Source of the DNA: an uncultured bacterium
GTDB taxonomy: Bacteria > Omnitrophota > Gorgyraeia > Zapsychrales > Aceulaceae
DNA length: 53,719 nucleotides
Assembly: GCA_937930175.1 (NCBI GenBank)
Contig: CALGLP010000016.1
Span: 1 to 53,719, forward strand
Direction of reading: 5' to 3'
Below, one piece after another: positions 1-47,634 of this stretch. A program made the translations under genes and the position numbers. Under the pieces are notes generated by a model. It did not search any database, was not told the origin of the DNA, and saw nothing but the letters and a program-made list of their open reading frames with translations. The stretch's first letter is position 1. Each line of letters begins with the position of its first letter.

Positions 1-304
1 TCATTGTAGCTAGCGCCGAATTCCGTTCTCATCCAATCGGTGGCCTGCAGGGTCAAGGAGAAGTTTTCCATCTTCTGCACATCCCATGTTGGAACGGCCT
101 GTGTTCCACCGAATAACCACCAGGAGACGAAGGCGCCGTTGGCATCCTTCTCAGCAGCCCAGACGATGTTGTTGACGAAGATCTGGAAGGATGCGGGGGT
201 CAAGTTCATCAGGTCAAAGTTGGCAATGTCTAAGATATCGCCTAAGAGCTCATTGTAGCTAGCGCCGAATTCCGTTCTCATCCAATCGGTGGCCTGCAGG
301 GTCA
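1..304. repeat. Exact 55-nt direct repeat (1-55 = 250-304) inside the giant ORF, offset 249 nt (83 codons)
   Basis: tcattgtagctagcgccgaattccgttctcatccaatcggtggcctgcagggtca occurs at both places. The copies diverge at the 56th base (a vs g). Both copies encode LTLQATDWMRTEFGASYNE in frame. Confidence 0.95.
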
Positions 305-3300
305 GAAGAAATTTATTTCTGTCAAAGGAATGTCCTTCAGGATTGACCACTCCGTAGAGAATAGTGAGTTCCGGATCTCCATGGCTAAGCCCAGATACTG
401 GACGCGGCTGAGGATGCAAGTTTGTGTTAAAGATCGCGTTAAAGGTCAAGCGAAAAGCTTCATTGGTCGTCATCTCTTCAAGAATCCAGGCCACATTAGA
501 CGTCCCAATAATAAAGACAGGGAGATCAAATCTTCCAACCGCTGGGTTGATAATCGCATAAAGAACGGCGAGCTGTGCAGGTGTTGGCGCAAGCGGATTG
601 AAGTTATTAAAAGTACCTTTTCCGTTATAATTGTAAATAAAATCATTACGAAATTCCGAATTGTTATAAAGGGCCTGCAAAAGATCGTCGATGACTTCAA
701 GCTTTGAATCAAGCTCTCCGAGAGAATTAAACTGGCGAAGGCTTTCCTGGAGGGTCAGATTCATAATGTCAATGGCTTGAGGTGGCGCCCTTGATAAAGC
801 ATCAGCAAAAACCAAATACCCATTCTGCGCTGCAATCCTGATCAAATATTTCTGAACCGCTGGATATGTAAAGGCTTCTTCAAGCTTTTCAATATTCATA
901 GCGAGAATCTCCTCGCTCTGACGAGCGATCGCAACCAAGACCGCATCCGCCTTCGAGGACTGGCTTACGGGTTTGCCGTTTGCTGATTGGCCAAATGGAT
1001 TGGCATTTGTTGCCTGGCTAAACATATCGCCATTATTGGGCTGGCTAACACCCGACAAGCTATTAGTTGGTGCGCTTTTATAAGAAGGGGTGGCTTGGTT
1101 TTCAGGAACATAAGCTAGATCACCATACACACCCGCCCAAGAACTCATAGGAGAAAACTGATTGCCGTCAACGAAATGACCCTTCATATTCGGGCTTTCA
1201 ACTTGCACAGCTTGCATCACCATCGTGCTCTGCGAGGAATATGATTGGCTGGCCGGCTTATTGTGCTTCTTGCCGCTTGAAAGATTAATCGCTATGCCAC
1301 CTTGCACCGATGTTATTTTCTCGCCAAAGAAATAGCTGTTCACAAAGCTAACACTCACTTCACTAATAACACCTTTACGCGGCGCATAATATGCCTTGCC
1401 TGAATACCCTGGCGCGTTACCCTCTGCCCAAACCCCTTGGAAGGCAACGCCCGTGCCATTTTTCTGATTATAAATATTCGCGCCAGCGGTAACACTCGTT
1501 GTCTTCTGGTTATCAGCGGTTCTTTGTCCGCCTGTCACGTAGCTGCCATTGGCGTTAACAACATACCCGGCAACAGGAAACTGTCCAGAAAGACGCCACA
1601 TTTCTAGCGGATCAAAGTTCTCGCTTGACACTCCAGACAATAGATAAAACTGATCATTTTTATTATAGCCTGTATAAGAAACGCTGATGTTGGCTATAGG
1701 ATTGGCTTTAAATTGTGTTTGGTAAGAGGCTGAAAAATACGTGTCGTCAAAACTTTTAGCAACACTAAGCTTGCCATTGCCAAAACCAAGATAAGGACCT
1801 GCAATGCTGAGGCTTGCCTGATCATTAGAATAAGAGTTGGTCTTAAATGTCGTATTTGCGCTAAGGGATACCGTGTGGCCAAGCATATCTCCAGAGAGAT
1901 TAAAGTTATCAGAAACATAATCCTTTGTCTGACGATAATAATTATAAACCTGAGAAGATGGGTTTGTCTGGTAATTAATTGTGTTATTAAGTCTTAGCTT
2001 CGGTGCAGCTTTCCAATAATTTGAACTTCTGAGAATAAGCGGTACGTTCTTTAAAGATGCCTCGGCGACATCATTGCGCGGCATGTTAACAGCAACTGAA
2101 GATTTCACCTTTGGCTGCGAAACCACCACGACATTAATCTGCCCTTGCTGGTGAACAACATCCTTGCCTTCAATATCTTTTGTTTTAATAAGGTCATACT
2201 GCATGCTAACTGGGGATTTCTTGATCCAGCCTAATTTAGAAACAGTCTCCATCGGATTAAAACTAAGAGTATATTGCGGTGGCATATTGCGTCCATCAAT
2301 GGTGCGCACATCAACGCCATAAGGCGTGTTAAGATTGTATCCCCAAGAGGTTTGAACAAAAGAGCTTTCTTCCTGGCCCCCGGCGTTGGTGCCCTTAATA
2401 TTCTGGAAAGTACCAAAATGTTCAACTCTAAAATTATACCAAGACATCCAGGCACGATAACAAGCTGACTGCGTATTGTAGCTACCAAAGATCTTTGAGT
2501 TGTATTGGGTAAGGTTTCCTGAAAGCCCAACGCTTGGGGCATTCTTCTTTCCGTTGTAGGTCAGGCTTCCAAAAGTATTGGTGCTTCCCAACAAGCTCGT
2601 ATTGCTATTTAATGCGACTGACAAAGGACCATGACGATATTGGAACCGCACATCAAATGTAGGATTGAAACTTGTCTTAGTAGGTTGCCCAGGCAAGCTA
2701 ACCGAACGATAAAGCCCATTAACACCGATCGTTAAATTCCATTGATCTGATACTTTTTGCGATAATGCCGGAAGGCCTAATTGCGTTCGCGTATAGCGCG
2801 TGACGTCGCGATAAACATCTGAGGTATCTGTATAAGCTCTCTGTGGCGCCACATACGTTTTTTGAGCGCCCGATGATGGCACTGGTGATGGTTGCTGCGG
2901 AACAGACTTGGCATAATCAACGGGCTGCTGAATCGCCTTGGTGACTGGCTCTTCTGCTGGAAGCTTGCTCTGGCTCTGGGGAGTAACAGCGACTTGGCCC
3001 TGATTTTGTGTCTGCGGCTGGGCAGGAGTTTTCTGGGTCTGGGCTTGGCTCTGAGCTTGATCTTGCTTAACAGTATCGTCAGCACCATCCTTTATTTTAT
3101 CTTGATGCACCGACTGCTGCTCTTGATATTGATTATAATTAGCATCAACCAAACGGCTATAAGCATAATAATTAAATCTTGTTTCGTTTACGATTTTGGC
3201 AATGTTATCCTTGATGTCCTGGATAGCGTTATACTCTCTATTGATCCCTAGCTGCTCTTCCATCGTAGGAGAATTCTGCGCCCTATCCTTAAGCTCTTTT

Positions 3301-6300
3301 TCTCGTCTTTTCATGTCCGAAACCAAAGCCTCGGCCATACCCTTGATCTTTTCATTCTCGGCCCTCTGAATAATATGATCTTCGTAAACGTCCTTCAAGG
3401 CCTCGTTGAATGTCTCAATCGTATCAATATATGCAGGCCTTACGGACATCAAGCCAAAGGACGGCTGGCCAAAAAGCATGAAGAGCGACAAAAGAACTGG
3501 AAGGATCGTTCGTCGAGTTATTCTTGGAACAAAATCTTCAGCACAGAAGAAAACGCTAGCAACTTTAATATTTTCTTTCGAATATAAATAAACACCTAAA
3601 CTGATCAGAGCCGCGCTAAGCATAAGCCCGGCAAAAGAAACATAACCAAGGATCAAAGCCGCATTCAGTAAAAGTAAAAATGTTGCAACTAAAGCTATTT
3701 TCTTAACAATCTTGATGAGGCTTGAAGAAATCGCGGAAGAAGCGGCCGGTGTCCTGATCTCCCAGACCAGATTTACCCTGGATTTGTTTACAGAGGAAAT
3801 CTGGACTCGGGCTACGCCCTCGCCACGGAAGAAATCTAGGGCTGCTGTCGAGGATACTTCTTGCCTGCCACGGTAGGAAGGTCTCAACAGCAGCCTATTA
3901 CCAAAAACTAAAGCCGGTGCCCATTCTTTCCAGCCACGGTTAGAAGAGGGCACCAGCATAGAAATCAAAGAAGCCGGTGTCGCACTTACCCAGCCACGGA
4001 CATAAGCGGACACCGGCGCAAAAAGCAAAGATGGGGCTGCTGCGAAAATGTTTCTGCCCCAGCCACGGACAGCAGAAAGTAGCAGCAGCCCATTGTTAAA
4101 TAAGAAAACCGGTTTCGAATTCTTCCCGCCACGGTCAGAAGTGAATACCGGCTTGTTGAACACCATATTTATGATCTTCGAAATGTTTGATGCGCTCACG
4201 ACCTGCGCAAACCAATCACGATATAAAGCAATGATGCCGCCGAGTACGACGGCTACACCCAAAGCTATCTTCATCTCTGGGCTCATGGCAACACCCAAAA
4301 GCATCATCGGCGCAAAAGAAGGCAAAATCGTCAATCGATTATCTACAGGCAAGACAGGTATCTGCGAAGAAGCTTTTTTCTGCTCGATCGGAGAATCCGA
4401 TTGCTTCTGAGATCTACGGGTAATCGTTGGGTTTCCTTCCTCATCCCACTCAACAACATCACCATGATAAAGAACTTCAGGATCTTCGTTTTGAGCCTGA
4501 GACTTGCAATCCTCGCCTTCCACCATTCTGTCCATAAAATCACCGTAGCGGGTGAACAGTTTTATCGCTAACGGCACGCCATAGGTATCGATCAATCGCC
4601 CAAGATGCTTAAGCACAGAAAAATAAGCTATAACCGCGACCGTAAAGGCGATCACGGCTCCGCCGGCATAAGAGGCAACATCACCCAAGCTAGGCGTAAG
4701 GGTATTGGCAAAATCACCGCGGCTATGACTTACTCCTGTCCCAGACATAAACTGGAACAGGTAAGGCAGGATCTCGGTTCTGGTGGTAACCGCCACATAC
4801 GTAAAGACAACAATGGTCCCGATATTCTTGAGCGTGTGACGCACAGGAACGAAACCATAGGTCATTCGTTGATAAATATCATAGCCGTACAAAAATACGA
4901 AGGACTTTTGGGGGATATCCAAGAAGAGATTATACCCATAATTGCGCATAAAAGTGCCTGGCGCATACTCAGAAAAGATATACGGCGCAACAGCCAAGAG
5001 TGTCCAGTAAAGCAAGCCAAAAGGCAGACGCAAGCCAATACTGGTAATGGCAATGATCCAGAAAACTACATGCTTAAAGAAATGAAGCCAAGGATGATCA
5101 ATGCCAGGAACTTCTCCCCATCCAAAATGAAGGAAGTTGTCAATAAAAAACGCCGCGGTCAAGGCTACCGCAAGATTAAATAAACTTTCTTTCCAGGTAC
5201 TACGATCGGCCTGCGGATCGACCAGAAGAATTCGTGCTGTTGTAGTCTTGATTCGTGTCCACGCTTTTTGCTGAAGGTCTTTTAACGATGATGAAGAACG
5301 ATTTTGGAAGATTTTAACAGGATTTTGAGACAGACCGCGGGAATTGAACAATGTGAAGAGAATTTGAGCTATGACAAAGGTCGGAAGAAGTCTTCCGAGC
5401 GGACTCATCTCTTTATTGCTTGGTATGACCCCAGTCTTAAATGTCTTTGTATTGCTTATTAGAGCTCTGGATCTATCGCTAATCTTCTGGTATTGACGCT
5501 GTAGGCCTTCTAAGGCTCGTCTGGCATACTCTTGCGCAGCTTTGAGAACAGAAGCAGCCCTTTGGCCTTCCTCATTAAAGGACACACCTTGGGCACCACT
5601 GGAAACGCCATTTTCTGCCATCAAAGACGAACTATTTTCTGTGATCACAGAGCTATTTCTAGCCTCCCTTACTATAGAAGGCGAACGAGCGCGGCCTGCA
5701 AACACCGCAGACACGTTCGATCTTGTTCCTAGATAAGCTGGAACCAATGCCCATTGACCTTCAGCGGCATAGGCCTCACCTACCAAGAACCTAGAAATGG
5801 CTGCAAACACATTCGTCATTGTTGCAGTTAACATTTCCTGTAACGACAATTCCTTTGAAAGAACATTTAAGCCTGTTTCTCTCTTAACGAGAGCAGCTAG
5901 GGCTCGGCTGGAGGTGATCATTTGGGCGCGCACCTCTCGCACCGTCAAGTCGCCAAATTTTCTAATGAGCAACTTAAAGTTTCTTACAACTTTTGCTTCT
6001 TTTACAACATCTGTGCGTCTCGAAGCAACGTTTCGCACAAATTCCGTGACTATTTTTGTTCCGCGCTTAATATTTATCACTGTCTGAGCCAATGCGGAAT
6101 TGGCCGACAGCCCAAAAATACCTCCGCCGTTACCGGTTCCACTAGAAAAATAGGGTCCGTCCTTCTTATCAACCTGGGCATGAGCTACCTTATATGCTCC
6201 AGGCACAGAAATTGTTTTATAGTTGACAATATTGGCATGAGCTTGGTTCACATAGGCAATAACTGTATGCGGATTCTCATTTTTAGGTGTTGTTTTCTGC

Positions 6301-9300
6301 CCTTGTCCTTCTGAAGGCAGAGGTAATTGTGCGCCTGGAGACGGAAGACCTAAGGGATACATAACCTTGGTATTATCAGATTGACCGGATGATTGCTTTG
6401 AAGTGGCCGTATGCGAGGTATTCTCCGCAAGAGCCACATAAACAACAGACGGTCCTCCGTCTCCAGGTTTATATTCATACTTAATATTTGTCTTTGCCTT
6501 ACCTAAAAGTGGCGTGAACATTAAGGTCGGCGTAGCCGGCACAAAAACAGGCGGCACAACTGGTGCCATAGGTGCAAATGAAGGAATGTCGGTCACATCA
6601 GAAGGCATAAATTCTACTGGCTTTGGCATGTCAGCGTCTTTAAACTGAATATCTTGTGTTTGCGTCTGCGCGCCTTCTGCCGGCACAATGCCGTCTTGCT
6701 GGCCTTTAGGAGTATTAACCACTACAAGCTCTAACGGTGTCCAGCGAACATCAACAAATTCAGCATTCTTCTCTATAAATACTGCACGTAAATCCGGATT
6801 AGACGCTACTGCTTCTTCTTTGTTTTTGACTATCAAGACGTTTGACACTGTGGTGTCCACATTGGGAAGCTTATCACCAAAATAATAAACATTGACACCC
6901 ATGCCTTTAAGGCTTGCTTCCATGCCTGGTGCTTCATCAGCCGGCACGTAGACAATAGAAAACGACAGGACTGAAAGCACATCTTTCAATGGAAGCGCCG
7001 ATGGTGTATTTTTGTTCGCATAATAATACTCAATAAGCTCTTGATTATCGACCTTCTGAGACGAAATCAACGTCGACGAACCGACCTTATTTGGCTTGAC
7101 AACAGTAGGAGCGGAAACAGGTTTAGACGTCTTGGCAACAGCAACTGCTGCTGGCGCTACCTGGCTTGGGATAAAATACATAATTGTTTCTAGCGCGTAT
7201 CCGTTCATGAAAGGAACTTCTTGGTCAACAGGACTTGGTGTGTCTCCTTGAGCAAAAATAACACCAGTTTTCACCTCAGCCGCGGCCTCTTCATCGGATA
7301 ATAGAACAGAAACAATTGGGCTGATGCCATCGACTCTATAATATTTTCCACCATGATAAATATATGGCTTTCGCGTATCGCCTTGAGCTTCTAGAGTCTT
7401 AATAATAGTTACTAGATCATTCTCTTCCATTGCGCTAGAAAATATTGAGCTGCCAGGGCTAGGACTCTTAAGAGCCGGCGCCTTGGGTGTCTTTGGTGCT
7501 TTTGGCGCTTTGAAAGTCGACGCCTTGTAACGAGCAGTAGCTAATAACTGATTTTGATTCCCAGGTAGCGTAGGAAGATTAAACTTGTAAATCCCCTTTC
7601 TAAGTTGTTCTTTAAGCTTTAAATTTATTTTCTTCGGATACGACTTGCGAGTCGTATCAGATTTTGGCATCTTTATCTTTTCCATGTTAATGGTATCAGG
7701 AGCAGAAAGCGTTGTGTCCCCTGCCATAAAATAGGTGTTGCTTGTGTTAGCAAAGGAAGCCTGATTTTCAGATACAGAAATCTCTCGGGGGGTTGGAAGC
7801 TTTATATCCAACAACGATATTTCAGAGGATTGCGCTTGAGTTTTCTGCGCGAAACCAAAAACAACAGCAAGAGATGCTGGAATCAACGATGCTGGGAGCA
7901 AAGATCCTAAAAAACTTGTCTTCGGCCCTGTTTTCAGGGTTGACGTCCAAGGAGCTTTGGTAGTCTTAAGCACAGAGCTCACCCCAGGCGCGGCAACGAT
8001 CGCGGGTTTTGTTTTCAATACACTTGAAGCGCCAGAAGCAAAGAGATCTGCTGTTTTGTTTAAGGTTTTCTTAACATCATCGAGTTGTGCTTGGGCCTTG
8101 CTATTTCTTCCTGCCTTGCCAAGCTCTTGAACTCTGTTGAGTTGTTTTGCAATAGCATTCTTTTGTTTGCTCGAAACAGTTCCGTTTAAAAGATTCAAAG
8201 CATTCTTGACTAATTTAATATTTGCCTTTAGATCCTTCGCATTGCTGCTATAGTTCTTGTTAAGCGTAGCAACAGATCTTTGATAGCGTTGTTTCGCAAT
8301 CACATCGTTGACAACCTCTTGGGCTTTTTGGCTTTGCTCCATACCCTTGAGAACGTTGCCTTTAGAAAACTCTTCTTCTGCTTTCTTGAGGCTGTCAGAA
8401 TATTGAGTCCATTGCGCATCTGTCAATCCTAATAGTTTATAAGCCTTTTCTTTAGCTTGCGCGGCAACAGTTTTGTTAGCTTGCCCAGCTGCTCTCGCCT
8501 TGGCAAAATAAACATTTGCAATTTCTTCTTCTAAATCAAAATCAACTCCAGCCTTTTCATATATTTGCTTAGCCTTATTAAGGCTTTGAATAGCTGAATC
8601 GTACTGACCGTGGGATATCTGCTTTTGTGCTTTATGGGCCAAATCATTGGCTTTTGAAACAGAAGAATCATGCTGATGACCCGAAAGACTTGCAAGCTTC
8701 TCTTCAAAAGCATGAGCCGCCTTAAGATTTGATCGATCGCGCATCACCTTAGCATTTTGCGTATAAATAGATGTTAGGATGGCTTGCTCATCGTATCCAT
8801 GCTTAGCTGCCAACTGAGCGGCAAACTCTTGAGGCTTAACATCTTGGGCATTCGTCTGATAGCCATACTGAACAAAAAAGATTTGAGAGAGATCTTCATA
8901 CTCATCATATTCCTCACCCATGCTCTTTTTGAGGTCGCGAACAACAGCAATCGCGCCGTTAAAATCTTTCTGTTTTAAAAGCTCGGCCTTCTTTACACGA
9001 AGGATTCTCTGCTGGGCAGCCTTTAAATCAAAATTTTTATTTTCTTTTTGAATCTGCTTTGCTGTCTCAAGAGCTTCTGCGTGCTGGCCAGCCTTTAGCT
9101 CATCATTATATTTCTGTGTTAAAATATCTTCTCGGGCACGGCTACGCTGATCATCCCGAATACCTTTCCTGTCTTTATCATCGGCGACCATCAAGGCCCT
9201 CTTGTAATCTTTCTTCTTAAGTGAATCCTTGATGTCTTGGTCAAAAGACTTTTTGGTTGCTTCAGTCTTACCATATGTATCTTGATTGACCTTGATTTCA

Positions 9301-34830: not shown

Positions 34831-34844
34831 ATTGTAACACTCTC

Positions 34845-35907: not shown

Positions 35908-35940
35908 CTCTTTCCTCCTTTATTTAAGTGGCTTACCGTT

Positions 35941-36315: not shown

Positions 36316-36361
36316 GTGCTTGCCTCCTTTTTACTTGTTTAGGTCTTAATGTACAAAATCT

Positions 36362-36553: not shown

Positions 36554-36655
36554 TGATTCCTCCTGTCTTCAATTGTATCAACTCTTGCTCCAATCACATT
36601 CCCTCGTTATTTCTTGCCTTGCGTCATGTTGCACGGACCTGCGCACCTGTTCTTT

Positions 36656-36976: not shown

Positions 36977-37053
36977 TACTCTCCTCCTTATCGTCAAATA
37001 TTTCTTATCAAGTATAGTTATTCAACCCCTACGTTTCCTCCGCTGCCACCCTC

Positions 37054-37431: not shown

Positions 37432-37481
37432 GTGCCTACCTCCTTTGTCAAAAAACTTATCTTTTATAAATGATCTTCTTT

Positions 37482-37703
37482 TTATTCGTCCCAACTTTGC
37501 CATTTGGTTGTCAGGCCTCCTGTTTGCTCGACAATGCCATTGGCAACAGCGTTATGGCTAGCCTCAATCGTGTTCACCAAGAATCCACCTCCGCTATGAT
37601 CTGCACCCATTGGCTTCAGAAAAACAATGGCCACAGCGATAATGGCGGTGACCAAGATGATGTACTCCAAGGTGCTTTGCCCTTTCTTACTTCTTATGTT
37701 CAT
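37482..37703 (-). CDS. flp: Flp pilin (73 aa from MNIRSKKGQ), cassette 2 gene a
   Basis: The track ORF 37482-37793 is trimmed to the ATG at 37701-37703, which is preceded by GGAGGG. N-terminus: MNIRSKKGQSTLEYIILVTAIIAVAIVFL. Confidence 0.7.
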   Translation of the reverse strand: MNIRSKKGQSTLEYIILVTAIIAVAIVFLKPMGADHSGGGFLVNTIEASHNAVANGIVEQTGGLTTKWQSWDE

Positions 37704-37737
37704 TCTTCCCTCCTCTTGTGTTAAATTAAACAGCTCT

Positions 37738-37893
37738 CTACTGCGCTGACTCCTCGACCTTTTTTTGCACAGACTGTACCGACCGCGTGACATAGGTATA
37801 CATAGCCATCATGACCGCTGCCACCAGCGATATCACAACCGCGTACTCGATCAAACTTTGTCCTGTGTGAAAACGTTTCGGAAATGAATACAT
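37738..37893 (-). CDS. flp: Flp pilin, 51 aa (below the 60-aa cutoff of the ORF track)
   Basis: Hand translation from ATG (37891-37893) to TAG (37738-37740) gives MYSFPKRFHTGQSLIEYAVVISLVAAVMMAMYTYVTRSVQSVQKKVEESAQ. This has the canonical G/xxxxEY Flp motif plus a hydrophobic helix. GGAAG lies about 9 nt upstream. Confidence 0.7.
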   Translation of the reverse strand: MYSFPKRFHTGQSLIEYAVVISLVAAVMMAMYTYVTRSVQSVQKKVEESAQ

Positions 37894-38071
37894 TTTTTTT
37901 CTTCCGTGGCTTATGGGTTTAAGAAAAAAATGTTTGTATGTGCTGCCCGCTTTTTTAAATGCGCTTGTGCCTCAATATCTCTCTTCACTACTAAATATAA
38001 CATATAATACTTTCAAAAACCATGTTATTTGCGTGAAAATTAACCCGGTCTTTGCATTCATTCCCCTTGCG

Positions 38072-39748: not shown

Positions 39749-39921
39749 TATTGTCCAAAGAGTTTTTATTTGTCCAAAATATTTTTTTTATTATATCGTA
39801 CATTCTTAGATGCCGCAAGGCTTAAACAAATGGCGCATTGCCTTACATTAAATGTTGCCAAGGCAAAAAAAAATAGGATTCGTTGACTCATCATTCATGT
39901 TGTCGCGTCCGCTGAGATTGT

Positions 39922-40208
39922 CTTTCTTTGCGCAGGATCGCGTCTCCCGTTTTCCTTAAGAAATTTCCAGTGGGATCGGGATTCGCTCGGCGTTCGGCTT
40001 CGCTCCTTTGCCCAAAGACGTGGCAAAGACCATGCTCGCGAAGCCTGACTCGATTCTCCTTAGTCTAAGATTAGAGGAAATCGAGACGTCTCAATTTCAT
40101 CAAGTTTTACATTTAAGGATGATTGAGGCGTTTGAGCGAAGGATGCTGCCAGCACGCCTCACATAAATAAGGACTTGTTCGGTAACCTTTATTAATGAAC
40201 CAACGGGC
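39922..40208. repeat. Intergenic structured element, copy B (paralog of 26635-26988)
   Basis: It shares cores 39982-40045 and 40133-40199 with copy A, while the middle section is unrelated. The conserved ACGCCTCA (40154-40161) pairs with TGAGGCGT (40124-40131). It ends 84 nt upstream of the plus-strand zinc-ribbon ORF. Confidence 0.7.
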
Positions 40209-40292: not shown

Positions 40293-40529
40293 ATGATGCT
40301 CAAATGCCCCTATTGTTTTGAAGTTCTTGAAACGCCAACATCAAAATGCCCTCACTGCGGACAATTTCTTATTGATCCGGCCATCGAAGAAGACTATAAA
40401 AGCATTGATAAGAAAAAATGTATTTTTTGCGGAAAAAAAATTCTTACAGAATCTAAAGTATGTAAATTTTGTCGGAAGTGGCTAGACAGTGTGGATGACG
40501 AAACCAAACATTTAGATAATATCGAATGA
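40293..40529 (+). CDS. Small double zinc-ribbon protein (78 aa)
   Basis: Two CxxC..CxxC pairs are present (CPYC..CPHC and CIFC..CKFC). AAGGAGAG lies upstream of the ATG. It is the only credible plus-strand gene, and its 3' end overlaps the DUF192 gene by 18 nt. Confidence 0.6.
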   Translation: MMLKCPYCFEVLETPTSKCPHCGQFLIDPAIEEDYKSIDKKKCIFCGKKILTESKVCKFCRKWLDSVDDETKHLDNIE

Positions 40530-40877
40530 TCTAAAATCCAGAAGATCCCCTAGCCTCGTCTTTGTTTTGTCAATAACTCCTGCCTCAAGCTCAATGGCAA
40601 AAACAGCCTTCCAGAAAAAAGCACTGACCTGAAAAGGTTTAATGCCGCGCACAAGCCCTACCACGTGATACGTCCGATCCACAAACACAACATCAATAGG
40701 AAACTGCATAAACATCATGTGGATGGCTTGACACTGCGGGATGATCAAGGCTTCTGAAGGATCTAAGCTGCGGCGGCCTAAAAGCCCTTTGGCGCGCGCA
40801 AAAAAATCTCGCGCCACAAAAACGTTGTGAGCCAAAAGATTATCCTTGGTTTTGTTAATAATGGGCATGGGATGCAT
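40512..40877 (-). CDS. DUF192 (COG1430) family protein
   Basis: ARAKGLLGRRSLDPSEALIIPQCQAIHMMFMQFPIDVVFVD...AIELEAGVIDKTKTRLGDLL fits the DUF192 pattern (GLmgr...iH..gM.fplDvvf.d...vlEl.aG...i..Gd). Confidence 0.7.
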   Translation of the reverse strand: MHPMPIINKTKDNLLAHNVFVARDFFARAKGLLGRRSLDPSEALIIPQCQAIHMMFMQFPIDVVFVDRTYHVVGLVRGIKPFQVSAFFWKAVFAIELEAGVIDKTKTRLGDLLDFRSFDII

Positions 40878-40884
40878 CCTTCAG

Positions 40885-40920
40885 GGTGGGGGCTGTTGCG
40901 AAAACGCAACAGCCCCCACC
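40885..40920 (-). other. Perfect 16-bp stem / 4-nt loop hairpin between the cpaE-F fusion gene and the DUF192 gene
   Basis: ggtgggggctgttgcg-aaaa-cgcaacagcccccacc. There is no U-run on either strand, so it is not a canonical terminator. Confidence 0.8.
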
Positions 40921-40931
40921 TAAAAGACAAC

Positions 40932-43100
40932 CTACGGATTGAAGATGGCTTTGTCGACGGTCAAGCCTTTTTTGAGAAAATCGTCGTAACAGATAGGAAT
41001 GTAGCCTGTGGCTTTGTACTCACCTAACACTTTGCCATCTGGGCCAACACCTTGATGGTCAAAAACAAAAATATCTTTTAGCATAATATCCCGCTGATCA
41101 TCTAAGCCAACAACCTCTGTAATCCCGGTGATCTTTCGTGTTCCGTCGGAAAACCGTGAAATCTGCACAACAATATCAATGGCGGTTGAGACCATTTCAT
41201 AAATAGCTTTAAGTGGAAGATCCACCCCGCTTAAGAGGATCATCGAGCTCATACGCACCAAGACATCCCGCGTTGAATTTGCGTGCAAGGTGGTCATAGA
41301 GCCATCATGGCCGGTATTCATAGCCTGAAGCATATCCAAGACCTCCGGGCCGCGGCACTCGCCAATGATAATACGGTCCGGCCGCATACGCAGGCAGTTA
41401 ATAAAAAGATCACGAATGGTAATCTCTCCTCGACCTTCAATATTCGGCGGACGAGATTCGAGTCTCCCCCAATGGCTTTGGCGAAGCTTCAGTTCCGCGG
41501 CATCTTCGATGGTGAGAATGCGCTCATCGTCGGCAATAAAAGAGGAAATCACGTTAAGAAGCGTTGTTTTTCCAGAACCCGTCCCGCCAGAGACAATGAT
41601 ATTCTTGCGGGTGTGCACACACGCTTGAATAAAATCAATCATCGACTGAGAGGCTGAATGATAAACATGAATCAACTCTTCAACCGTGATACGCTCTTGG
41701 GCAAATTTACGAATCGTTAGCATCGGCCCCTTCAACGATAAGGGAGGAATAATCGCGTTAATACGCGACCCGTCCGGAAGACGGGCATTGACCATCGGCA
41801 CAGACTCATCAATGCGGCGACCCAACGGCGCGATAATGCGATCAATGACCGAGCGTATCTGACCATTAGAAATAAAGCGCTTATTAGTAAAAATGATCTT
41901 CCCTTTTTTCTCAATATAAATTTCATCCTTATTATTCACCATAATATCCGTGATCTCAGAATCAGCTAAAAATTCCTCAAGAGGACCAAGTCCCAAGGCT
42001 TCGTCTGTAATTTCTTTGACAAGGCGTCTCCTATCTTCCAGTGAAGAGATAAGCGCTCCAGCCTCCTCCGCCAGCAGATCACCGATCACCTTTTCCGCGC
42101 CCTCGCGTATTTTACGAGATTGCACTGGGTCACGCAAAGCATCCATGGTAATATTGCGCAAATTGAGCCTGTCGATAAGCTTGTCGTGGACAGCCTGCTT
42201 AAGCTTAACAATATCGTCATCGGCACGCGTTGCGGAGAGGACTTCTCGGCTTTCTGAAACATGCTGATTGATGCCAAACTTCTCCCAAAAACTTTCCTCT
42301 TCCGTACCTTTTATTTTTGTACGAAGACGAACTTGCTCAATATCTTGAACGAAAATCCCCTCCTTAAGAAGATTGCTCGTCAGCTGCTGAAACCCTTCAG
42401 CAATAGGGCTTTCTGGACTTTCACTCACGCAAGGAACCCCTTTGTTTAAGGCAAGTCCTACAGCTTTCCCATCGGAAGCAATTTGCGCAAAAATATCACA
42501 AGGCAACACCGCGCGCACTTCCTGCCACGCCACACCACCACGGCTTTGTGAGCGATTAAGCACAAGTTTAACAATTTGGCTTGGAAAATGAAGGGCGGTC
42601 AAGACATTAAGGCACGCCCTCGCCTGATACACCGCCAGGACATCCGGTGTAGCAACAAGTAAAATAAGATTGGATTGATCAAAGACCGTAATCAAGGTTT
42701 CGTTAAAAACCTTACCACCGTCAATAATAATAAATTCATAGATCTTGGCGCAATTCTTAATAAAATGCCTGATCTTATCTTGATCGATCTTGGTTGTTTC
42801 ATCAATCTGGGAAACACAGGGAAGGAAATCAATACCGCTCGAATGCTTGAACATTTGACGCTCAAGAACTTGCAAATCTTCTGTGGCTTCGGCATCGAGG
42901 CAGACATCAACGATAGAACGCCTTGCCTTAAGGCCAATGCTACGCGCAAGATCCTGGCCCGACTGAAGGTCAAAATCAAGAAGCAAGACTTTCTTTTTCT
43001 TTAAAGCTAGCTGCACAGCTAAGTTCGCAGCAATAAACGTCTTGCCAACGCCACCCTTGGTGCTGAAAACAACTGCTGTTTTTCCGTTCATGGCCATCAT
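40932..43100 (-). CDS. cpaF: Fusion of a CpaE/TadZ-like ParA/MinD ATPase domain (N-terminal ~250 aa) with the CpaF/TadA secretion ATPase (722 aa)
   Basis: The N-terminus VVFSTKGGVGKTFIAANLAVQLALKKKKVLLLDFDLQSG carries a deviant Walker A of the ParA/MinD class. The C-terminal part has IIVSGGTGSGKTTLLN (Walker A), ERILTIEDAAEL, RMRPDRIIIGECRG and NTGHDGSMTTLHANS, the CpaF/VirB11-class boxes. Confidence 0.85.
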   Translation of the reverse strand: MMAMNGKTAVVFSTKGGVGKTFIAANLAVQLALKKKKVLLLDFDLQSGQDLARSIGLKARRSIVDVCLDAEATEDLQVLERQMFKHSSGIDFLPCVSQIDETTKIDQDKIRHFIKNCAKIYEFIIIDGGKVFNETLITVFDQSNLILLVATPDVLAVYQARACLNVLTALHFPSQIVKLVLNRSQSRGGVAWQEVRAVLPCDIFAQIASDGKAVGLALNKGVPCVSESPESPIAEGFQQLTSNLLKEGIFVQDIEQVRLRTKIKGTEEESFWEKFGINQHVSESREVLSATRADDDIVKLKQAVHDKLIDRLNLRNITMDALRDPVQSRKIREGAEKVIGDLLAEEAGALISSLEDRRRLVKEITDEALGLGPLEEFLADSEITDIMVNNKDEIYIEKKGKIIFTNKRFISNGQIRSVIDRIIAPLGRRIDESVPMVNARLPDGSRINAIIPPLSLKGPMLTIRKFAQERITVEELIHVYHSASQSMIDFIQACVHTRKNIIVSGGTGSGKTTLLNVISSFIADDERILTIEDAAELKLRQSHWGRLESRPPNIEGRGEITIRDLFINCLRMRPDRIIIGECRGPEVLDMLQAMNTGHDGSMTTLHANSTRDVLVRMSSMILLSGVDLPLKAIYEMVSTAIDIVVQISRFSDGTRKITGITEVVGLDDQRDIMLKDIFVFDHQGVGPDGKVLGEYKATGYIPICYDDFLKKGLTVDKAIFNP

Positions 43101-43135
43101 TCTATAAAAATCAAAACAAGGGTTATCGTAAAAAT

Positions 43136-44794
43136 TTAATTAAGCTGGTAAACAATGGGGATCGTCACGCTTATCTGCTTTAAGGTCACGTCTGAAGGAA
43201 AGGCACCATACGGAGAAAGTCTATGAACAGTCTCCAGCGCGGCCTCGTCTAAAATCGTCGACCCCGAAGACTTGCTAACCGACGCCGTAACCAAGGATCC
43301 CGTCTTAATGATTGTCAAGGCTACCTCTACGGCTCCCTGTGCCTTGGTGTCTTTGGCAAATTGAGGATAAAAAATATTCTTGGCAATATGCTCTTGAACG
43401 CTGCGAATATACTCCGCCATGATTCCAGGAACAGCGATGGGCTGATACGTTGGTTGAGGAAGATCTGTTTCTGTTTTTGCAAGAGAGGCAATCACGCTTT
43501 GATTTTTTTCTTCTTGAACCTTGCTTTCCTTCTTAGCCTCATCGCCCTCTTGTTGCTTTTTTTCATTTGTCTGAACGACCCTTGGGGTCAAGCTAATGAA
43601 AAGCTCTGTTTGCGCATTAGGATCATTTGATTGACTTCTAAAGAAAATCCCAATGATTGGCAACGACCCTAACAAAGGAACCCTCTTGACGTTGACACCT
43701 TTACTATCCTTAATAAAACCCGCAAGAATGATCGTTTGCCCTGAATCTAAATAAAGCTTGGTCTGCGCTGAGCGCTTCGTATAACCAACATCACTTCCAA
43801 CCTTGGTCGACTCATCAATATCAGAGACATCAACATTAAGATCAATATCGATCTTTCCGCTTTTCTCAACAACAGACTTAATTTTTAAGTCAACCCCATA
43901 ATCATGAAAAGTAATATTCTCAGAAAAGCTGCCTCCCGAGCTTGTTGTTGTGGTCCGGATAGGAACCTCACCTCCAACTGAAAATGACGCCTCTTCTCCG
44001 CTTTTCACAACAATTTTAGGCTGGGATAGTATTTTGCCTTTCCCCTCTGTGATCAAGGCATTAATTTTTGCTTGTATTGTTGAGGTGCGTGTCATTTTAC
44101 CAATTTTAAAGATATCTCCAAAATCTTTAACATTACCCGTAAGCGCGGTTTCATCAAAAATATAGCTGCCATCACTTTCGCTCGTAGTCCATTCAATCCC
44201 TAGATTTTTTGCATACGTAGAGCTTAATTCAGAAATTTGCATATCAAACTCAACAAGCTCTTTCTTTTCTCTTTCTTTAACAAGATTAACAAGACTTGCG
44301 GCAAAAGGCTCCACAAGGGCATCAAAGGCCTTCTTTTGCTTTTCCTCAACTTCACCAGAAATAACAAGCTTACCCTCGAGCTCACTTTTCTCTAAGGAAA
44401 TATCTTGAATGTCCGCGCTTTTTAAAAGCTCTGCAACGCGAGCCTCAACAAGATCCAAGTCCTCCGCAAAAACCCATACGGTTACTGTGCGCTTGCCATA
44501 TGCATCCCAGATATAAACCTCTGTTTTTCCAGGAGTCTTGGCGGTAACGAGGGCTTCAGTCGGTTTAGTTTCGATAACGTCTGCGATAGCGGGATTGGCG
44601 ATAGCAATCCTTGTAAGATCTTTGGTCCAGATGGTATCTAAATCTCCAACAACGATTTTCAAGTCATTGATATTGTGTCGAAAATAAGACTCATCGAATA
44701 TCTTGGAAAAGACAAGCTTGTGGCTACAGAAGATCGCAGTACAGACAACGCCTGCGGCAAAAAGAACTTTTAGAAAATATTTCTTTCTTTGCAT
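43136..44794 (-). CDS. cpaC: CpaC/RcpA-type secretin with a C-terminal TonB_C-like domain (552 aa)
   Basis: It has a signal peptide and an N-terminal pilus-formation domain (LKIVVGDLDTIWTKDLTRIAIANPAIADV). The secretin core reads GKILSQPKIVVKSGEEASFSVGGEVP...RVPLLGSLPIIGIFFRS...ELFISLTPRVV. After a Lys/Glu/Gln linker, the C-terminal ~95 aa read YPQFAKDTKAQGAVEVALTIIKTGSLVTASVSKSSGSTILDEAALETVHRLSPYGAFP...IPIVYQL, which matches the TonB C-terminal pattern. Confidence 0.8.
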   Translation of the reverse strand: MQRKKYFLKVLFAAGVVCTAIFCSHKLVFSKIFDESYFRHNINDLKIVVGDLDTIWTKDLTRIAIANPAIADVIETKPTEALVTAKTPGKTEVYIWDAYGKRTVTVWVFAEDLDLVEARVAELLKSADIQDISLEKSELEGKLVISGEVEEKQKKAFDALVEPFAASLVNLVKEREKKELVEFDMQISELSSTYAKNLGIEWTTSESDGSYIFDETALTGNVKDFGDIFKIGKMTRTSTIQAKINALITEGKGKILSQPKIVVKSGEEASFSVGGEVPIRTTTTSSGGSFSENITFHDYGVDLKIKSVVEKSGKIDIDLNVDVSDIDESTKVGSDVGYTKRSAQTKLYLDSGQTIILAGFIKDSKGVNVKRVPLLGSLPIIGIFFRSQSNDPNAQTELFISLTPRVVQTNEKKQQEGDEAKKESKVQEEKNQSVIASLAKTETDLPQPTYQPIAVPGIMAEYIRSVQEHIAKNIFYPQFAKDTKAQGAVEVALTIIKTGSLVTASVSKSSGSTILDEAALETVHRLSPYGAFPSDVTLKQISVTIPIVYQLN

Positions 44795-44798
44795 ATCG

Positions 44799-45656
44799 CT
44801 ATTTTACCCCACTTCGATAAATCTCAATGGAAGATGATGGCTCTTCTTTCTGCGCTTCTTTCTTTTTAGGAGCAACCGGTGAATTGATCATGACACCTTG
44901 TGTTGACTCTAAATAATTTTTTAATGTTTCCCACGTTGCTGACGGCAAACGATAAGAAGAGCTCTCCCCAGAACTTCTCAAAACAAGCTGTAATTTACCA
45001 TGCAATTCAGCAAACGTCAAAAGTTCTGCTTGCTCAGGATCAACAGCAAAGGTAATCGTCAAGCTAGTTGTTTTTTGCTGACCGTCAAAATCAGATGGAC
45101 TGTCTACATTTGAGCCTATGGCTAAAATTTGAATATTTTGAAAAAGCGTAAGAGTTGTCTTCTGCATTTTACTAACATCTTGTTTTCCTGAAGCATCTAC
45201 TTGTGTCACCGCATCCGTTGGAAGATCCAAATGCGCCAAGACATCAACAAAGTCTCCTGGATTAAGAAGACCCCCTACTGCCGCTAAAGTCGTTATGTTC
45301 ACCGTAATAGCACGCTTTCCCTCTGGAGTCTTAAGGGCAAGAGATTGTCTCTTAAGCGCAGGCTTCTCGACAACGGGTTGCGTCGCAGGCCTAGCTTGTT
45401 GCTGCTGAACAATACCCTGAAGCTCTTGCTCTACACGATTGGCGTAAGCCTCTTGACTCTGCATCACTTCCCTTTGAGCGCTTTCGAGCGCCTTGACTTT
45501 CTCCATGAGAAAAGCAACTTTTTCTGCTCCTGATCCCTCTTCGATGGTGCGATTGATATGGGCATTGGTCAACACAACCGCTACAATCCCTGCAGCAACC
45601 GCAGCCACAAGAACCATTAATTTTGTTTTATCAAACTTTTTAAAATCTAGTGCCAT
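44799..45656 (-). CDS. cpaB: CpaB/RcpC pilus assembly protein
   Basis: It has an N-terminal TM helix. The motif GKRAITVNITTLAAVGGLLNPGDFVDVLA is typical of the CpaB SAF/RcpC region. Confidence 0.75.
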   Translation of the reverse strand: MALDFKKFDKTKLMVLVAAVAAGIVAVVLTNAHINRTIEEGSGAEKVAFLMEKVKALESAQREVMQSQEAYANRVEQELQGIVQQQQARPATQPVVEKPALKRQSLALKTPEGKRAITVNITTLAAVGGLLNPGDFVDVLAHLDLPTDAVTQVDASGKQDVSKMQKTTLTLFQNIQILAIGSNVDSPSDFDGQQKTTSLTITFAVDPEQAELLTFAELHGKLQLVLRSSGESSSYRLPSATWETLKNYLESTQGVMINSPVAPKKKEAQKEEPSSSIEIYRSGVK

Positions 45657-45666
45657 GGCGTATCGG

Positions 45667-46629
45667 TTATTTTAATAAATCTTGGTTAATGACAATGCTT
45701 GTCTTACTTTTAATGTTTTCAATATAATCGGTAATAACCTTTTGCCTTTTCATGCCCAAAACATATTGCTTGAGCTGATCATAGTCTTCGGGCTTGGCCT
45801 TGATAGTCTCAAGCTTTTCAATCTCTCCGCCACGTTTTTCTTCAAGCTTCACAATATAAAAACCCTTCTTTCCTTTAAAGACACTGCTCGTCTGTCCAGG
45901 CTCAAGAGTCAAAACAATATTGCCGACTTGAGGATCTTCAAAATCCATCAGAAACCCTGCGTCACCACCTTTAACAGCGGTTTCACTAATAGAGTTAACA
46001 CGGGCGGTTTCTGCAAAATCCGCACCTTGCAAGATACCGACTAAGAGCTCCTTGGCCTTGGCTTCATCAGCAACAACAAGCTCTCGGATATGCCATTCAA
46101 CCGGCTGCTGAAAAAGATCTTCATTTTCTTTATCATTATAAAAAGCCTCAACATCCTTGTCTGTGGCCTGGATATTCTCGACTAAACCCTTAGCAAGTTG
46201 TTGCACCATAAGCGTTTTGCGATATTCATCAACGGCCTTGACCACGTCTTTGTCCTTGTCTAATCCTTTTTGCTCTGCTTCTGTGATCAAAAGCTGCTGA
46301 CGAATAAGTTCATCAAGAATCGCGGCTCTATTTTTAGGATCCTTGTCATCAAAATCGCCCATAGCAGTTTTAAGGGCCACAATCTTTTCATTAAATTCTT
46401 GAACAGTAATTATCCAATTACCGACCTTCGCTAAGACATCCTTGCCAGTAGATTCCAAAGAGGCTTGAGGCATGGACGATTCACTCTTGACAGGCTCATC
46501 CGCTGTTTTCTTTTTCATCGACGGGAAATAATCCCCTAAAAAAGAGAGCTTGTCGCAACCGCTGCTAACAAGACTTAGCGCTAAAACAAAACCCATGAAT
46601 AATTTTATCCCCTGTTTTGACGATCTCAT
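45667..46629 (-). CDS. Parvulin-type peptidyl-prolyl isomerase lipoprotein (SurA/PrsA-like)
   Basis: A lipobox-like signal is present (LALSLVSSGC). The rotamase-like C-terminal half reads HIRELVVADEAKAKELL..GADFAETARVNS..GGDAGFL......GQTSSVFKGKKGFYIVKLEEKR. Confidence 0.65.
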   Translation of the reverse strand: MRSSKQGIKLFMGFVLALSLVSSGCDKLSFLGDYFPSMKKKTADEPVKSESSMPQASLESTGKDVLAKVGNWIITVQEFNEKIVALKTAMGDFDDKDPKNRAAILDELIRQQLLITEAEQKGLDKDKDVVKAVDEYRKTLMVQQLAKGLVENIQATDKDVEAFYNDKENEDLFQQPVEWHIRELVVADEAKAKELLVGILQGADFAETARVNSISETAVKGGDAGFLMDFEDPQVGNIVLTLEPGQTSSVFKGKKGFYIVKLEEKRGGEIEKLETIKAKPEDYDQLKQYVLGMKRQKVITDYIENIKSKTSIVINQDLLK

Positions 46630-46737
46630 TTCTTCCTCCTATTTGTTAATATAATCAATGTTATTTTTATTATAAAGAGTAAACTACGGAACTCAAGAGT
46701 TTTTTAACTTTTTGTTAAAAAAATAAAACTATTTTTA

Positions 46738-47634
46738 TTAAGGTCCAGGCGTCCAAGCACAACAACCACCTTGTTCATTTTTCACACACCCTCCACCTGG
46801 GCCCGTTGGACAATGCTCCTGGCAGCATTGAAAAAGAATGCTGCTGTCCGTGCGCGAAAGACACTTTTCAGTATCAGGCCCTATCCCATAAGCAGGAATG
46901 CTATAGTTAAATGGTGAGGTGTATTCACAACCTCCCCAATTACAAGCTGCCCAAAAACAACAAGAATCTGCTTCGCATGCACCCTGATCCTGATACATAA
47001 CGCATGTACATGTTAAAGGGTTTGGGGCATTCTGACTTGTGCAATATTCATTTGCAACGCACTCGGTACCAGCACCAGTACAAGTATCTTTTGTACAATC
47101 ACAACTACCTATCGACATTGCACAGTCAGATGACGGCCTATTTTCACAACTTTCGGCACTTGTTATACAATTTCCGGAAGGATCGTCTTCTTTTATAATT
47201 TTCCAATAGCAACATTCGTTCGCACAGCAATCGTTATGGGAAGAAGAAAAATTATTACAAGTCACAGAGCTGCAATCGACCTCACAGCGGCAAGCATTTG
47301 GATCTGGGGGAACAAAGGCACAATTTTGAGCAGGTCTTTTTTTACAACTTCCATCCGCTGGAATAGAAAACGACTGCGTCCTCCAATAACAACAATCAAG
47401 CGAAAGACAGCAACTATCATGCGCTAATCCTTCGCACGTTACAGAACTACAACCGCTCACATTAGCGCTAACGCTATAATCATGCTGAGCCTGCTCGGCG
47501 GAGATTTCCCAAGAACGCATATAGGCATTGACGCTACGAATGACATAAGGCCCCATCACAACGATACCAGCCAAAACAAGGATGGTGATCATGATAAACT
47601 CTAAAGTGGATTGGGCACGAAAAGGTTTTTTCAT
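46738..47634 (-). CDS. Pilin-like N-terminus fused to an extremely Cys-rich domain (298 aa)
   Basis: The N-terminus is MKKPFRAQSTLEFIMITILVLAGIVVMGPY. I count about 38 Cys afterwards. The module CSSVTC-x8-10-CC-x3-CCYW occurs twice, with a degenerate third copy. Confidence 0.6.
   Translation of the reverse strand: MKKPFRAQSTLEFIMITILVLAGIVVMGPYVIRSVNAYMRSWEISAEQAQHDYSVSANVSGCSSVTCEGLAHDSCCLSLDCCYWRTQSFSIPADGSCKKRPAQNCAFVPPDPNACRCEVDCSSVTCNNFSSSHNDCCANECCYWKIIKEDDPSGNCITSAESCENRPSSDCAMSIGSCDCTKDTCTGAGTECVANEYCTSQNAPNPLTCTCVMYQDQGACEADSCCFWAACNWGGCEYTSPFNYSIPAYGIGPDTEKCLSRTDSSILFQCCQEHCPTGPGGGCVKNEQGGCCAWTPGP

Follow-up and report, generated by a model that had tools for sequence, protein, structure and literature searches.

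A giant gene with a constant head follows a Tad-type pilus locus, behind its own promoter and leader, in an Omnitrophota contig

This study concerns a stretch of 53,719 nucleotides (nt) from an uncultured Omnitrophota bacterium (GCA_937930175.1, contig CALGLP010000016.1, forward-strand positions 1-53,719), here called the window, in which a giant open reading frame (ORF) lies downstream of a locus for a Tad-type pilus machine. Both are read on the minus strand: the Tad-type locus occupies positions 27009-47634 and is followed by the giant ORF at 3-25997, which leaves the window at its left end. Omnitrophota are widespread, ultra-small bacteria that are thought to live on or prey on other cells, and their giant genes are among the longest known. 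The components of the machine, and the giant ORF, are as follows.

40512-47634, minus strand: outer-membrane/ATPase module (DUF192, CpaE-CpaF, secretin with TonB_C, CpaB/RcpC, SurA-like peptidyl-prolyl isomerase (PPIase) and a Cys-rich pilin-like protein)
45667-46629, minus strand: SurA-like PPIase, from Pfam/NCBIfam
44799-45656, minus strand: CpaB/RcpC, TIGR03177 at 102 bits against a cut-off of 71
43136-44794, minus strand: secretin of the CpaC/RcpA type, with Secretin (E=1.4e-40), T2SS-T3SS_pil_N and a fused TonB_C domain
40932-43100, minus strand: fusion of CpaE (ParA/MinD) and CpaF, PF00437 T2SSE at E=1.7e-60
40512-40877, minus strand: DUF192 protein, from Pfam/NCBIfam
34090-37893, minus strand: eleven small Flp-like pilin genes, with (G/A)-Q-S/N-x-x-E-Y/F N-termini in their translations
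28777-34042, minus strand: three pilin-like proteins (1042 amino acids (aa) and Cys-rich, 97 aa, 599 aa) with N-terminal prepilin-type helices
27897-28757, minus strand: tadB, 286 aa, one PF00482 T2SSF domain
27009-27893, minus strand: tadC, 294 aa, one PF00482 T2SSF domain
3-25997, minus strand: giant ORF, start codon ATG at 25997, at least 8,665 aa, C-terminus beyond the window

Pfam and NCBIfam analysis of this locus revealed the components of a Tad/Flp machine. The T2SSF matches of tadC and tadB have E-values of 5e-15 and 4e-17 in Pfam. The best NCBIfam match of the CpaF part of the ATPase is TIGR03819 (TadA family, E=1.9e-93), at a score under the strict cut-off of that equivalog, and the N-terminal 260 aa of the same protein form a TadZ/CpaE-like part with matches to CbiA, AAA_31, ParA and MinD. 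The CpaE-CpaF fusion is kept in more than 120 protein clusters. A TadA/CpaF ATPase, a TadZ/CpaE protein, TadB and TadC as single-domain proteins, an RcpA/CpaC secretin, an RcpC/CpaB protein and the Flp-type motif were all found. Among the traits of a classical type II secretion system (T2SS) of the Gsp type, the GspC, GspL and GspM families were undetected with Pfam and NCBIfam, the platform is split into two single-domain proteins and the pilins are Flp/class III-like. Judged by its components, the machine is of the Tad type (type IVc pilus, T2SS class) rather than of the Gsp type. No match to a prepilin peptidase (TadV/CpaA, family A24) was found among the scanned ORFs of 27009-47634 or in three full cassettes from relatives (L140, L141 and L142), and its gene may be encoded elsewhere in the genome. 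A C-terminal TonB_C domain on the CpaC-type secretin also occurs in these three cassettes (L140:8316-9974, L141:7777-9996, L142:8338-9999), an uncommon fusion that might link the secretin with peptidoglycan or with an energised partner.

The G/XXXXEY processing motif is readable in most of the 11 small pilin ORFs. Their leaders end in (K/R)-(G/A), followed by Q-S-x-x-E-Y, which is the Flp/class III motif cut by A24 aspartic peptidases. In Pfam, Class_IIIsignal scored above its cut-off for one of these ORFs, and Flp_Fap matches stayed sub-threshold (E=0.0095-0.047). The 1042-aa and 599-aa proteins gave matches to PF13400 Tad (E=0.0035) and PF07811 TadE (E=0.019), both sub-threshold. Homologs of the 1042-, 97- and 599-aa proteins occupy the same position in many loci, and the three are candidate minor or tip pilins by their sequences. 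A 298-aa Cys-rich protein at the end of the locus (47634) has a pilin-like N-terminus and sub-threshold Tad/TadE matches only, so that about 15 pilin-like proteins are encoded in the locus. A unit of three pilins is duplicated in tandem (35605-36553 versus 36656-37793, repeats D1, D2 and D4), with 76-89% nucleotide identity over the repeated parts, which indicates that the pilin set is actively expanding. The module of cpaB, cpaC, a cpaE-F fusion, DUF192, PPIase, tadB and tadC that a first-pass annotation had read from the bare sequence is confirmed by Pfam and NCBIfam, and its count of 11 small pilins, with Flp-like N-termini, stands as well.

The relation between giant and machine was analysed across genomes in both directions. 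In the forward test, a profile of the N-terminal module of the giant (A2) was run against the GTDB species-representative genomes and gave 51 loci that encode this head, all from Omnitrophota or from generically labelled bins. Upstream tadB-tadC genes on the same strand were present in 37/37 loci having at least 5 kilobases (kb) of upstream sequence, the distance from their end to the conserved head match being 0.5-4 kb. At most of these loci the giant ORF exceeds 3,600 aa and reaches the end of the retrieved stretch. In the reverse test, a TadC profile (A4) was run against metagenome contigs and the best 80 of 537 relatives were kept. These tadC relatives share 50-85% identity, and in all 24 of the 24 loci with at least 5 kb of downstream sequence a giant head follows on the same strand, 0.4-6.2 kb away. 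The linkage of homologs of the giant N-terminus to Tad genes, which the first-pass annotation had set out beforehand as a refutable claim, thus holds both ways. Since this gene order recurs in dozens of independent genomes, it is not due to chance. In L024 (7425-8303), and in L027, the tadC homolog has an in-frame stop while cassette and giant head are otherwise intact; the stop in L024 could reflect a pseudogene, a sequencing error or recoding.

The three full cassettes extend the comparison to the rest of the machine. Their CpaEF proteins are 61-81% identical to that of the window, and in all three the order is PPIase, RcpC, secretin with TonB_C, CpaEF, DUF192, a zinc ribbon on the reverse strand, a protein of about 554 aa (or 978 aa) and the pilins, after which come proteins of about 500, 90 and 1000 aa. 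One of these cassettes overlaps a forward-test locus on the same contig, and the chain from ATPase to giant is therefore continuous there. The flanks of L141 and L142 are unlike those of the window, and L140 shares the mdh/dehydrogenase flank. Two genes that belong to this conserved order in the window are the following.

40293-40529, plus strand: double-zinc-ribbon protein of 78 aa with four CxxC motifs, between DUF192 and the 558-aa gene
38072-39748, minus strand: 558-aa protein at the head of the pilin block

An opposite-strand zinc-ribbon gene of 74-89 aa occurs in all four full cassettes (also L140:12510-12740, L141:12540-12809, L142:12547-12771); in the window its DZR_2 and DZR matches fall slightly under the curated cut-offs (E=1.4e-5). 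Counterparts of the 558-aa gene, of 554-978 aa, hold the same position at L140:12985-14649, L141:13032-14696 and L142:12978-15914 (978 aa in one genome). The first-pass label of HTH (helix-turn-helix) protein for the 558-aa product is left unconfirmed, as no match was found in Pfam, NCBIfam or PDB sequence searches, even at E up to 10. Its description of the locus and giant as running without interruption has to be corrected, given the opposite-strand zinc-ribbon gene and a gap of 1,011 nt between tadC and the giant.

The pairing of giant genes with such machines is already in the literature, and the window is one more instance of it. West-Roberts et al. 2023 (10.1101/2023.11.21.568195) describe Omnitrophota giants that are preceded by gspD/E/F, rcpC, Rotamase_2 PPIase and class III signal-peptide genes, and full-length giants that bear N-terminal C39 domains; in the same account 'giant' denotes a gene of more than 90 kb, Archaeovorin and Dockerin types are distinguished, and PilZ and sugar-import genes lie downstream. 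Nielsen & Lui 2026 (10.64898/2026.06.07.730766) give secretion/pilus flanks for 13/14 giants, together with a C39 architecture cluster of 24 proteins. Seymour et al. 2023 (PMC10066038) treat Tad complexes and giant ORFs as markers of symbiosis or predation, and the same text cites, for V. archaeovorus, an expressed Tad complex and giant-ORF peptides that are about 3-fold up in attached cells. The first-pass statement that giant ORFs near Tad loci had been noted in Omnitrophota was correct, as West-Roberts et al. 2023 (10.1101/2023.11.21.568195) attest.

The minus-strand reading frame of the giant has no stop between 3 and 26126 (8,708 codons) and continues past the left window edge; at 44% GC a frame of this length is not due to chance. 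The start codon ATG at 25997 aligns in six related loci (alignment A3). Two GTG codons, at 26120 and 26042, were rejected as starts: one precedes the conserved -10 hexamer, the other falls within the leader hairpin described below. An identical tadC protein is encoded on ENA contigs ERZ724082 NODE_453 (54 kb) and ERZ724084 and in GCA_036722365.1 (188-kb contig), where the giant ORF reaches the contig end at 8,706, 5,809 and 7,961 aa, respectively; these three, from independent assemblies, are the longest contigs carrying the locus, and the length of the giant is accordingly a lower bound. An exact repeat lies at the window edge.

1-55 and 250-304, inside the giant ORF: exact 55-nt repeat (D8, 100% identity, period 249 nt)

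A repeated LTLQATDWMRTEFGASYN peptide begins at this 55-nt repeat, which is the probable cause of the assembly break.

Adjacency could also be an inherited gene order without functional meaning, or the giant ORF might not be an expressed gene at all. Every example comes from one phylum and the body of the giant is almost without homologs, as such an account would have it. Against it, the linkage is kept even at identities of only about 50% for TadC and 34-40% for the head, and in other gene surroundings; conservation of promoter, leader and start codon speaks for expression; the 8,708-codon frame cannot be a product of chance; and giant-ORF peptides were detected in V. archaeovorus (PMC10066038). 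We regard this account as largely refuted already and as extremely unlikely.

Comparison of the whole giant with about 134 loci by tblastn revealed that aa 1-400 are matched in 83-87 of them, and that beyond aa 700 matches occur in 3-7 close relatives only. By these comparisons the giant consists of a constant head of about 350-400 aa and a hypervariable body with almost no relatives.

24948-25775, minus strand: conserved giant head (aa 75-350), in which a hydrophobic helix spans aa ~79-105 and a C39 peptidase-fold domain comes after it at aa ~190-330

The only Pfam match on the giant is Peptidase_C39 near its N-terminus (E=2.6e-8). Among six homologs, Cys197 and His282 are invariant, and Asp298 (His+16) is present in 5/6, with Glu in the sixth. 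An AlphaFold model of the head (predicted local distance difference test, pLDDT, of 78) gave as top Foldseek matches the peptidase domains of PCAT1, LahT and ComA, at probability 1.0 and with a template-modelling (TM) score of about 0.7 on the target; the matches include 6mpz, 4ry2 and 3k8u and the C39-like domain of HlyB. The His and Asp of the head align at sequence level with those of PCAT1 and LahT. According to the model, the giant head has a papain-like C39 fold with predicted catalytic Cys, His and Asp. The positive-inside rule suggests that the C39 domain is periplasmic. Pfam and NCBIfam scans found no ATP-binding cassette (ABC) transporter domain in the giant or in the locus.

An alternative is that maturation within the machine falls to the C39 head, which would process pilin-like precursors, or another protein of the locus, in place of TadV/CpaA; such a need would account for the conservation and linkage of the head. 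The head has an invariant Cys and His and a nearly invariant Asp in a peptidase fold, about 15 pilin-like candidate substrates lie next door, and an A24 gene was found neither in the window nor in the three full cassettes. The pilin leaders, however, carry the A24-type Flp/class III motif and not a double-glycine motif, a prepilin peptidase may sit elsewhere in the genome, and the fusion of a peptidase to a protein of more than 8,000 aa is left unexplained. We therefore consider this role very unlikely.

The non-coding gap between tadC and the giant spans 25998-27008 (1,011 nt). Analysis of this gap, and of the region before the first pilin gene, revealed the following elements.

26111-26138, minus strand: sigma-70-type promoter of the giant, TTGACA, 16 nt, TG-n-TATATT
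26004-26101, minus strand: conserved leader with a GCCACGG box (26087-26093), an AU-rich spacer of about 40 nt, a GGGCUGUGGC.../...GCCACAGCCC hairpin and a U-run
37904-37910, minus strand: GCCACGG box preceding the first pilin gene, 10 nt from its start codon

The promoter has an extended -10 element and matches the consensus at 11/12 positions, and its hexamers are invariant in six loci whose heads are 47-77% identical (alignment A3). A GAATGTCCAAT box, conserved in 6 loci, touches the -35 hexamer, and a AAAGCCACGG box, conserved across the aligned loci, lies about 20 nt after the -10 hexamer. The U-run of the leader ends 8 nt before the start codon of the giant. The GGGCUGUGGC/GCCACAGCCC hairpin shows a compensatory change in one of the six aligned loci; its general form, GGGCU.../...AGCCC, was found between tadC and the giant start in loci L004-L128. 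RNAalifold gave compensatory changes at 9/10 leader pairs, a covariation that is partly built in by the selection of the leaders.

The GCCACGG box is over-represented upstream of giant genes. It occurs 51 times, in 34/77 unique upstream regions, where permuted 7-mers occur 2.2 times on average and 15 times at most; its reverse complement occurs 6 times in the same 77 regions. A perfect hairpin of 7-12 bp (mostly 9-12) with a T-run follows 28-127 nt downstream in 27/35 box-bearing leaders, the distance from box to hairpin being within 78 nt in all but one of the 27, and in 15/27 the hairpin includes a segment complementary to the box. A covariance model built from 20 leaders (R1) was run against both strands of 1.5 Mb of sequence. 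At E<0.01 it had 32 hits, every one of them on the gene strand and located between tadC and the start of the giant; about 12 are non-seed loci, and the hit in the window scores 61 bits. The leader is not a known RNA family, since a whole-window Rfam scan and a permissive scan of the gap gave tRNA and chance-level matches only. The element may act as an attenuator or a small RNA, or it may serve as a binding site for a protein or as an ops-like signal for antitermination. Leader-peptide attenuation was rejected as a general mechanism, as short ORFs follow the GCCACGG box in few loci only.

The same box stands 8-10 nt upstream of the start codon of the first (51-aa, Flp-like) pilin gene in five relatives from the clade of the window (L060:2489, L062:1448, L063:1368, L064:1393, L065:1314). 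Because it precedes both pilin and giant, the two are probably co-regulated. Co-orientation is not co-transcription here: the gap carries a promoter and a terminator-bearing leader, and Tad genes and giant are hence not simply one operon. Across the forward-test loci the gap is never under about 270 nt, while the cassette genes are otherwise tightly packed. With its own promoter and leader and a gap of at least about 270 nt, the giant is a transcription unit of its own rather than the final gene of the Tad operon. Transcription of this very costly gene is probably gated by conditional read-through at the leader terminator, as the arrangement of box, hairpin and U-run would allow.

Such separate control is also what would be expected if giant and machine served the same process without physical coupling. 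The Tad-like pilus would then only attach to or retract on the host cell, as in Bdellovibrio or the Kil system of Myxococcus, the giant would be inserted and exposed by Sec/YidC or by its own domains and act independently as a coat or an enzyme scaffold, and the linkage would reflect shared regulation only. The giant's own promoter and leader and the shared GCCACGG box fit co-regulation of this kind, and the several hydrophobic helices of the giant are typical of membrane proteins inserted by Sec/YidC. West-Roberts et al. (10.1101/2023.11.21.568195) describe SecA-like domains in many giants and propose self-export. Yet the available 8,665 aa of the window giant contain no SecA-like domain; co-regulation needs no strict adjacency, and the order of tadC, gap and head is nevertheless kept in 37/37 and 24/24 loci; and conservation within the giant is confined to the head, which adjoins the machine genes. 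A shared process without coupling is in our judgement unlikely, though a real contender.

We consider it probable, on balance, that machine and giant form one functional unit with a physical or export link. Conservation of the head alone, beside an essentially unique body, points to a machine-fitting role for the former and a target-facing one for the latter. The head would anchor or process the giant at the inner membrane and would have to be matched to the adjacent machine; contact with host or prey would fall to the variable, fast-evolving body. The pilus or pseudopilus and the secretin would carry the extracytoplasmic parts of the giant, or fragments released by C39, across the outer membrane in a T2SS-like manner; alternatively, they would hold the target cell while the giant acts. 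Co-regulation, a passage or surface display by way of the secretin, and a part in cell contact are what we infer. Of the first-pass interpretation, the lineage and the conserved linkage are supported, and display or delivery of the giant by the Tad machinery would be its proposed mechanism. A bolder proposal joins these steps with the leader, which would be a new cis-regulatory class licensing genes of 26 kb to more than 250 kb and tying them to the pilins, with the C39 head docking or processing the body for export through the Tad-like secretin; we put it forward as speculative and rather unlikely in this full form.

Several points weigh against a functional unit of this kind. Single-phylum synteny could in part be inheritance. 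The reverse test covered the closest tadC relatives only. With a gap of at least about 270 nt and its own promoter, the giant has no translational and no obligatory transcriptional coupling to the machine, and the leader motif is present in about 40% of the loci (34/77 upstream regions). As for the head, the oxyanion Gln typical of C39 is not evident, and no cargo with a double-glycine leader was identified. A protein with many membrane helices is, in addition, no classical substrate of a T2SS or Tad system.

The body of the giant, read from hydropathy and composition, contains three distinctive regions.

13098-17060, minus strand: Gly/Ala-rich, membrane-helix-like block (aa ~2980-4300), hydropathy peak at aa 2993
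3378-5360, minus strand: second hydrophobic-helix block (aa ~6880-7540), five hydropathy peaks at aa 6971-7516
1248-2810, minus strand: beta-rich, aromatic-rich region (aa 7730-8250)

Within the Gly/Ala-rich block a segment of about 240 aa is duplicated (direct repeats D3 and D7). The first-pass annotation had suggested that this glycine-zipper block be checked for co-occurrence with cpaF/cpaC. Only the N-terminal ~350-400 aa of the giant are conserved and no homolog of the block was found in the first ~3,600 aa of the other giants examined, so that it is unusable as a probe and the check cannot work. The second helix block is followed, on reading the sequence, by a coiled-coil-like and a Q/P-rich stretch. 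Within that block, an R-G(-W) motif recurs in each of six repeats, about 20 residues long, at 3822-4134 (giant aa ~7289-7392); the antisense of these repeats reads GCCACGG at regular spacing. The beta-rich region is a suspected outer-membrane barrel. A word-based homolog search with aa 7700-8300 was empty, a single-sequence AlphaFold model was unusable (pLDDT 29), and an exhaustive search among 1.84 billion representatives found one relative, P0126, at 36% identity. P0126, a fragment of 2,713 aa, is the sole relative of the C-terminal ~2,500 aa of the giant. It has an ART-PolyVal ADP-ribosyltransferase domain and a weak match of the Tse3/lytic-transglycosylase (muramidase-like) kind, both of which the window giant lacks there; enzymatic modules seem to come and go among giants that are collinear in other respects. 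In Pfam, aa 1-8665 of the window giant gave no SecA_DEAD, dockerin, glycosyl-hydrolase or glycosyl-transferase domain.

Further boxes and a repeat were found in the regulatory gaps.

26142-26149, 26493-26500 and 26549-26556, upstream of the giant promoter: TGTCCA / TTGTCCAA boxes
39751-39758 and 39770-39777, just before the start of the 558-aa gene: two TTGGACAA boxes, direct copies
26677-26982, with a second copy at 39982-40202: repeated, strongly folding non-coding element (repeats D5 and D6; BLAST between the copies)

The TTGTCCAA box occurs 9 times against 2.8 expected, a number reached in 0/100 shuffles, and 4/9 of the TTGTCCAA/TTGGACAA boxes lie in the two regulatory gaps (26142-26149, 26549-26556, 39751-39758 and 39770-39777). 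They are kept in the closest relative (L140 ~12870-12900) and, by position, may be the operator of a shared transcription factor. The repeated element has conserved ends of 73 nt and 64 nt, a variable middle and fold z-scores of -4.9 (first copy) and -2.1. Among the gaps aligned in A3 only that of the window has it. Given this absence from the corresponding gap of relatives, it resembles a small genome-specific repeat, mobile or structured. The idea that the 1-kb gap is the scar of a mobile element holds in part only: the element of about 300 nt is inserted in this genome alone, and the conserved promoter and leader lie outside it.

Beyond the Tad locus the window encodes a malate/lactate dehydrogenase, a 2-hydroxyacid dehydrogenase, a pyridoxal phosphate (PLP) enzyme, a PMT_2 glycosyltransferase-like protein and tRNA-Glu. 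The flank at 48091-51584 (PLP enzyme, 2-hydroxyacid dehydrogenase and malate/lactate dehydrogenase) also adjoins the cassette in L140 (483-3866), the closest relative; it is partly kept in that a dehydrogenase occurs in L141 too, and the flanks differ in more distant genomes. The 3' end of tRNA-Glu (53619-53694) has a copy, with a hairpin, 273 nt away (53310-53361 versus 53583-53634), which may represent a relic attachment site or else a tRNA copy that has decayed. The named relatives of the giant head are Omnitrophota metagenome-assembled genomes throughout, the others carrying generic labels such as 'uncultured Planctomycetales' (ENA bins) or 'bacterium'; those of the CpaE-CpaF fusion are all Omnitrophota, and one relative carries the label 'bacterium' only. 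By these relatives the window belongs to Omnitrophota, as had been guessed at first pass.

Text searches of two of the papers on Omnitrophota giant genes found promoters and terminators unmentioned. The promoter of the giant, the GCCACGG/terminator leader, the head/body pattern, the two-way counts and the DUF192, zinc-ribbon and ~554-aa genes do not figure in the published passages compared here. This study adds the linkage counts in both directions, the constant-head/variable-body pattern, the conserved DUF192, the reverse zinc ribbon, the ~554-aa gene and the secretin-TonB_C fusion, along with a conserved and possibly new promoter and leader. The leader offers a regulatory handle on how cells control and finish the transcription of genes that are tens to hundreds of kilobases long. 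If our reading of the leader is true, the shared box would tie transcription of the giant gene to production of the pilins.

Comparison with the published Omnitrophota cassette shows the same phylum, the same upstream genes, an N-terminal C39 domain near a membrane segment and many membrane helices. It differs from the window giant, which in its available part is without SecA_DEAD, dockerin, glycosyl-hydrolase and glycosyl-transferase domains. Since the ORF is cut at 8,665 aa, it is not placeable among the Archaeovorin- or Dockerin-type giants of more than 30,000 aa. The C39 domains of PCAT1, LahT and ComA, and the inactive C39-like domain of HlyB, have the same fold as the modelled head, which retains the Cys, His and Asp (His+16) positions. 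Unlike the C39 domains of bacteriocin exporters, the head is not fused to an ABC transporter; a hydrophobic helix precedes it and more than 8,000 aa follow.

With the Tad/Flp systems, known as tad in Aggregatibacter and cpa in Caulobacter, the machine shares CpaF/TadA, CpaE/TadZ, TadB and TadC, CpaC/RcpA, CpaB/RcpC and Flp-like G/XXXXEY pilins. It differs from them in the fusion of CpaE to CpaF, a secretin with TonB_C, 11 small pilins beside four large pilin-like proteins, and the lack of TadV, TadD and RcpB in the locus, as well as in the extra PPIase, DUF192, zinc-ribbon and ~554-aa proteins and the attached giant. The pul cluster of Klebsiella, a T2SS operon adjoining its substrate gene pulA, which has its own promoter, is similar in that a machine of secretin, ATPase, platform and pseudopilins stands beside the gene for an exported protein. 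T2SS substrates, in contrast, are soluble or lipid-anchored periplasmic proteins of ordinary size, and the components found here are Tad-type and not Gsp-type. The Kil system of Myxococcus xanthus is said, in work by Seef et al. from 2021, to be a Tad-like apparatus needed for contact-dependent killing of prey; its genes are reportedly split over two clusters, with no giant gene attached. The likeness is that of a predator's Tad-type machine, proposed to act at the site of prey contact and not as a simple adhesive pilus. Kil would be the best, and nearest, functional analogy for the way in which the cassette may work.

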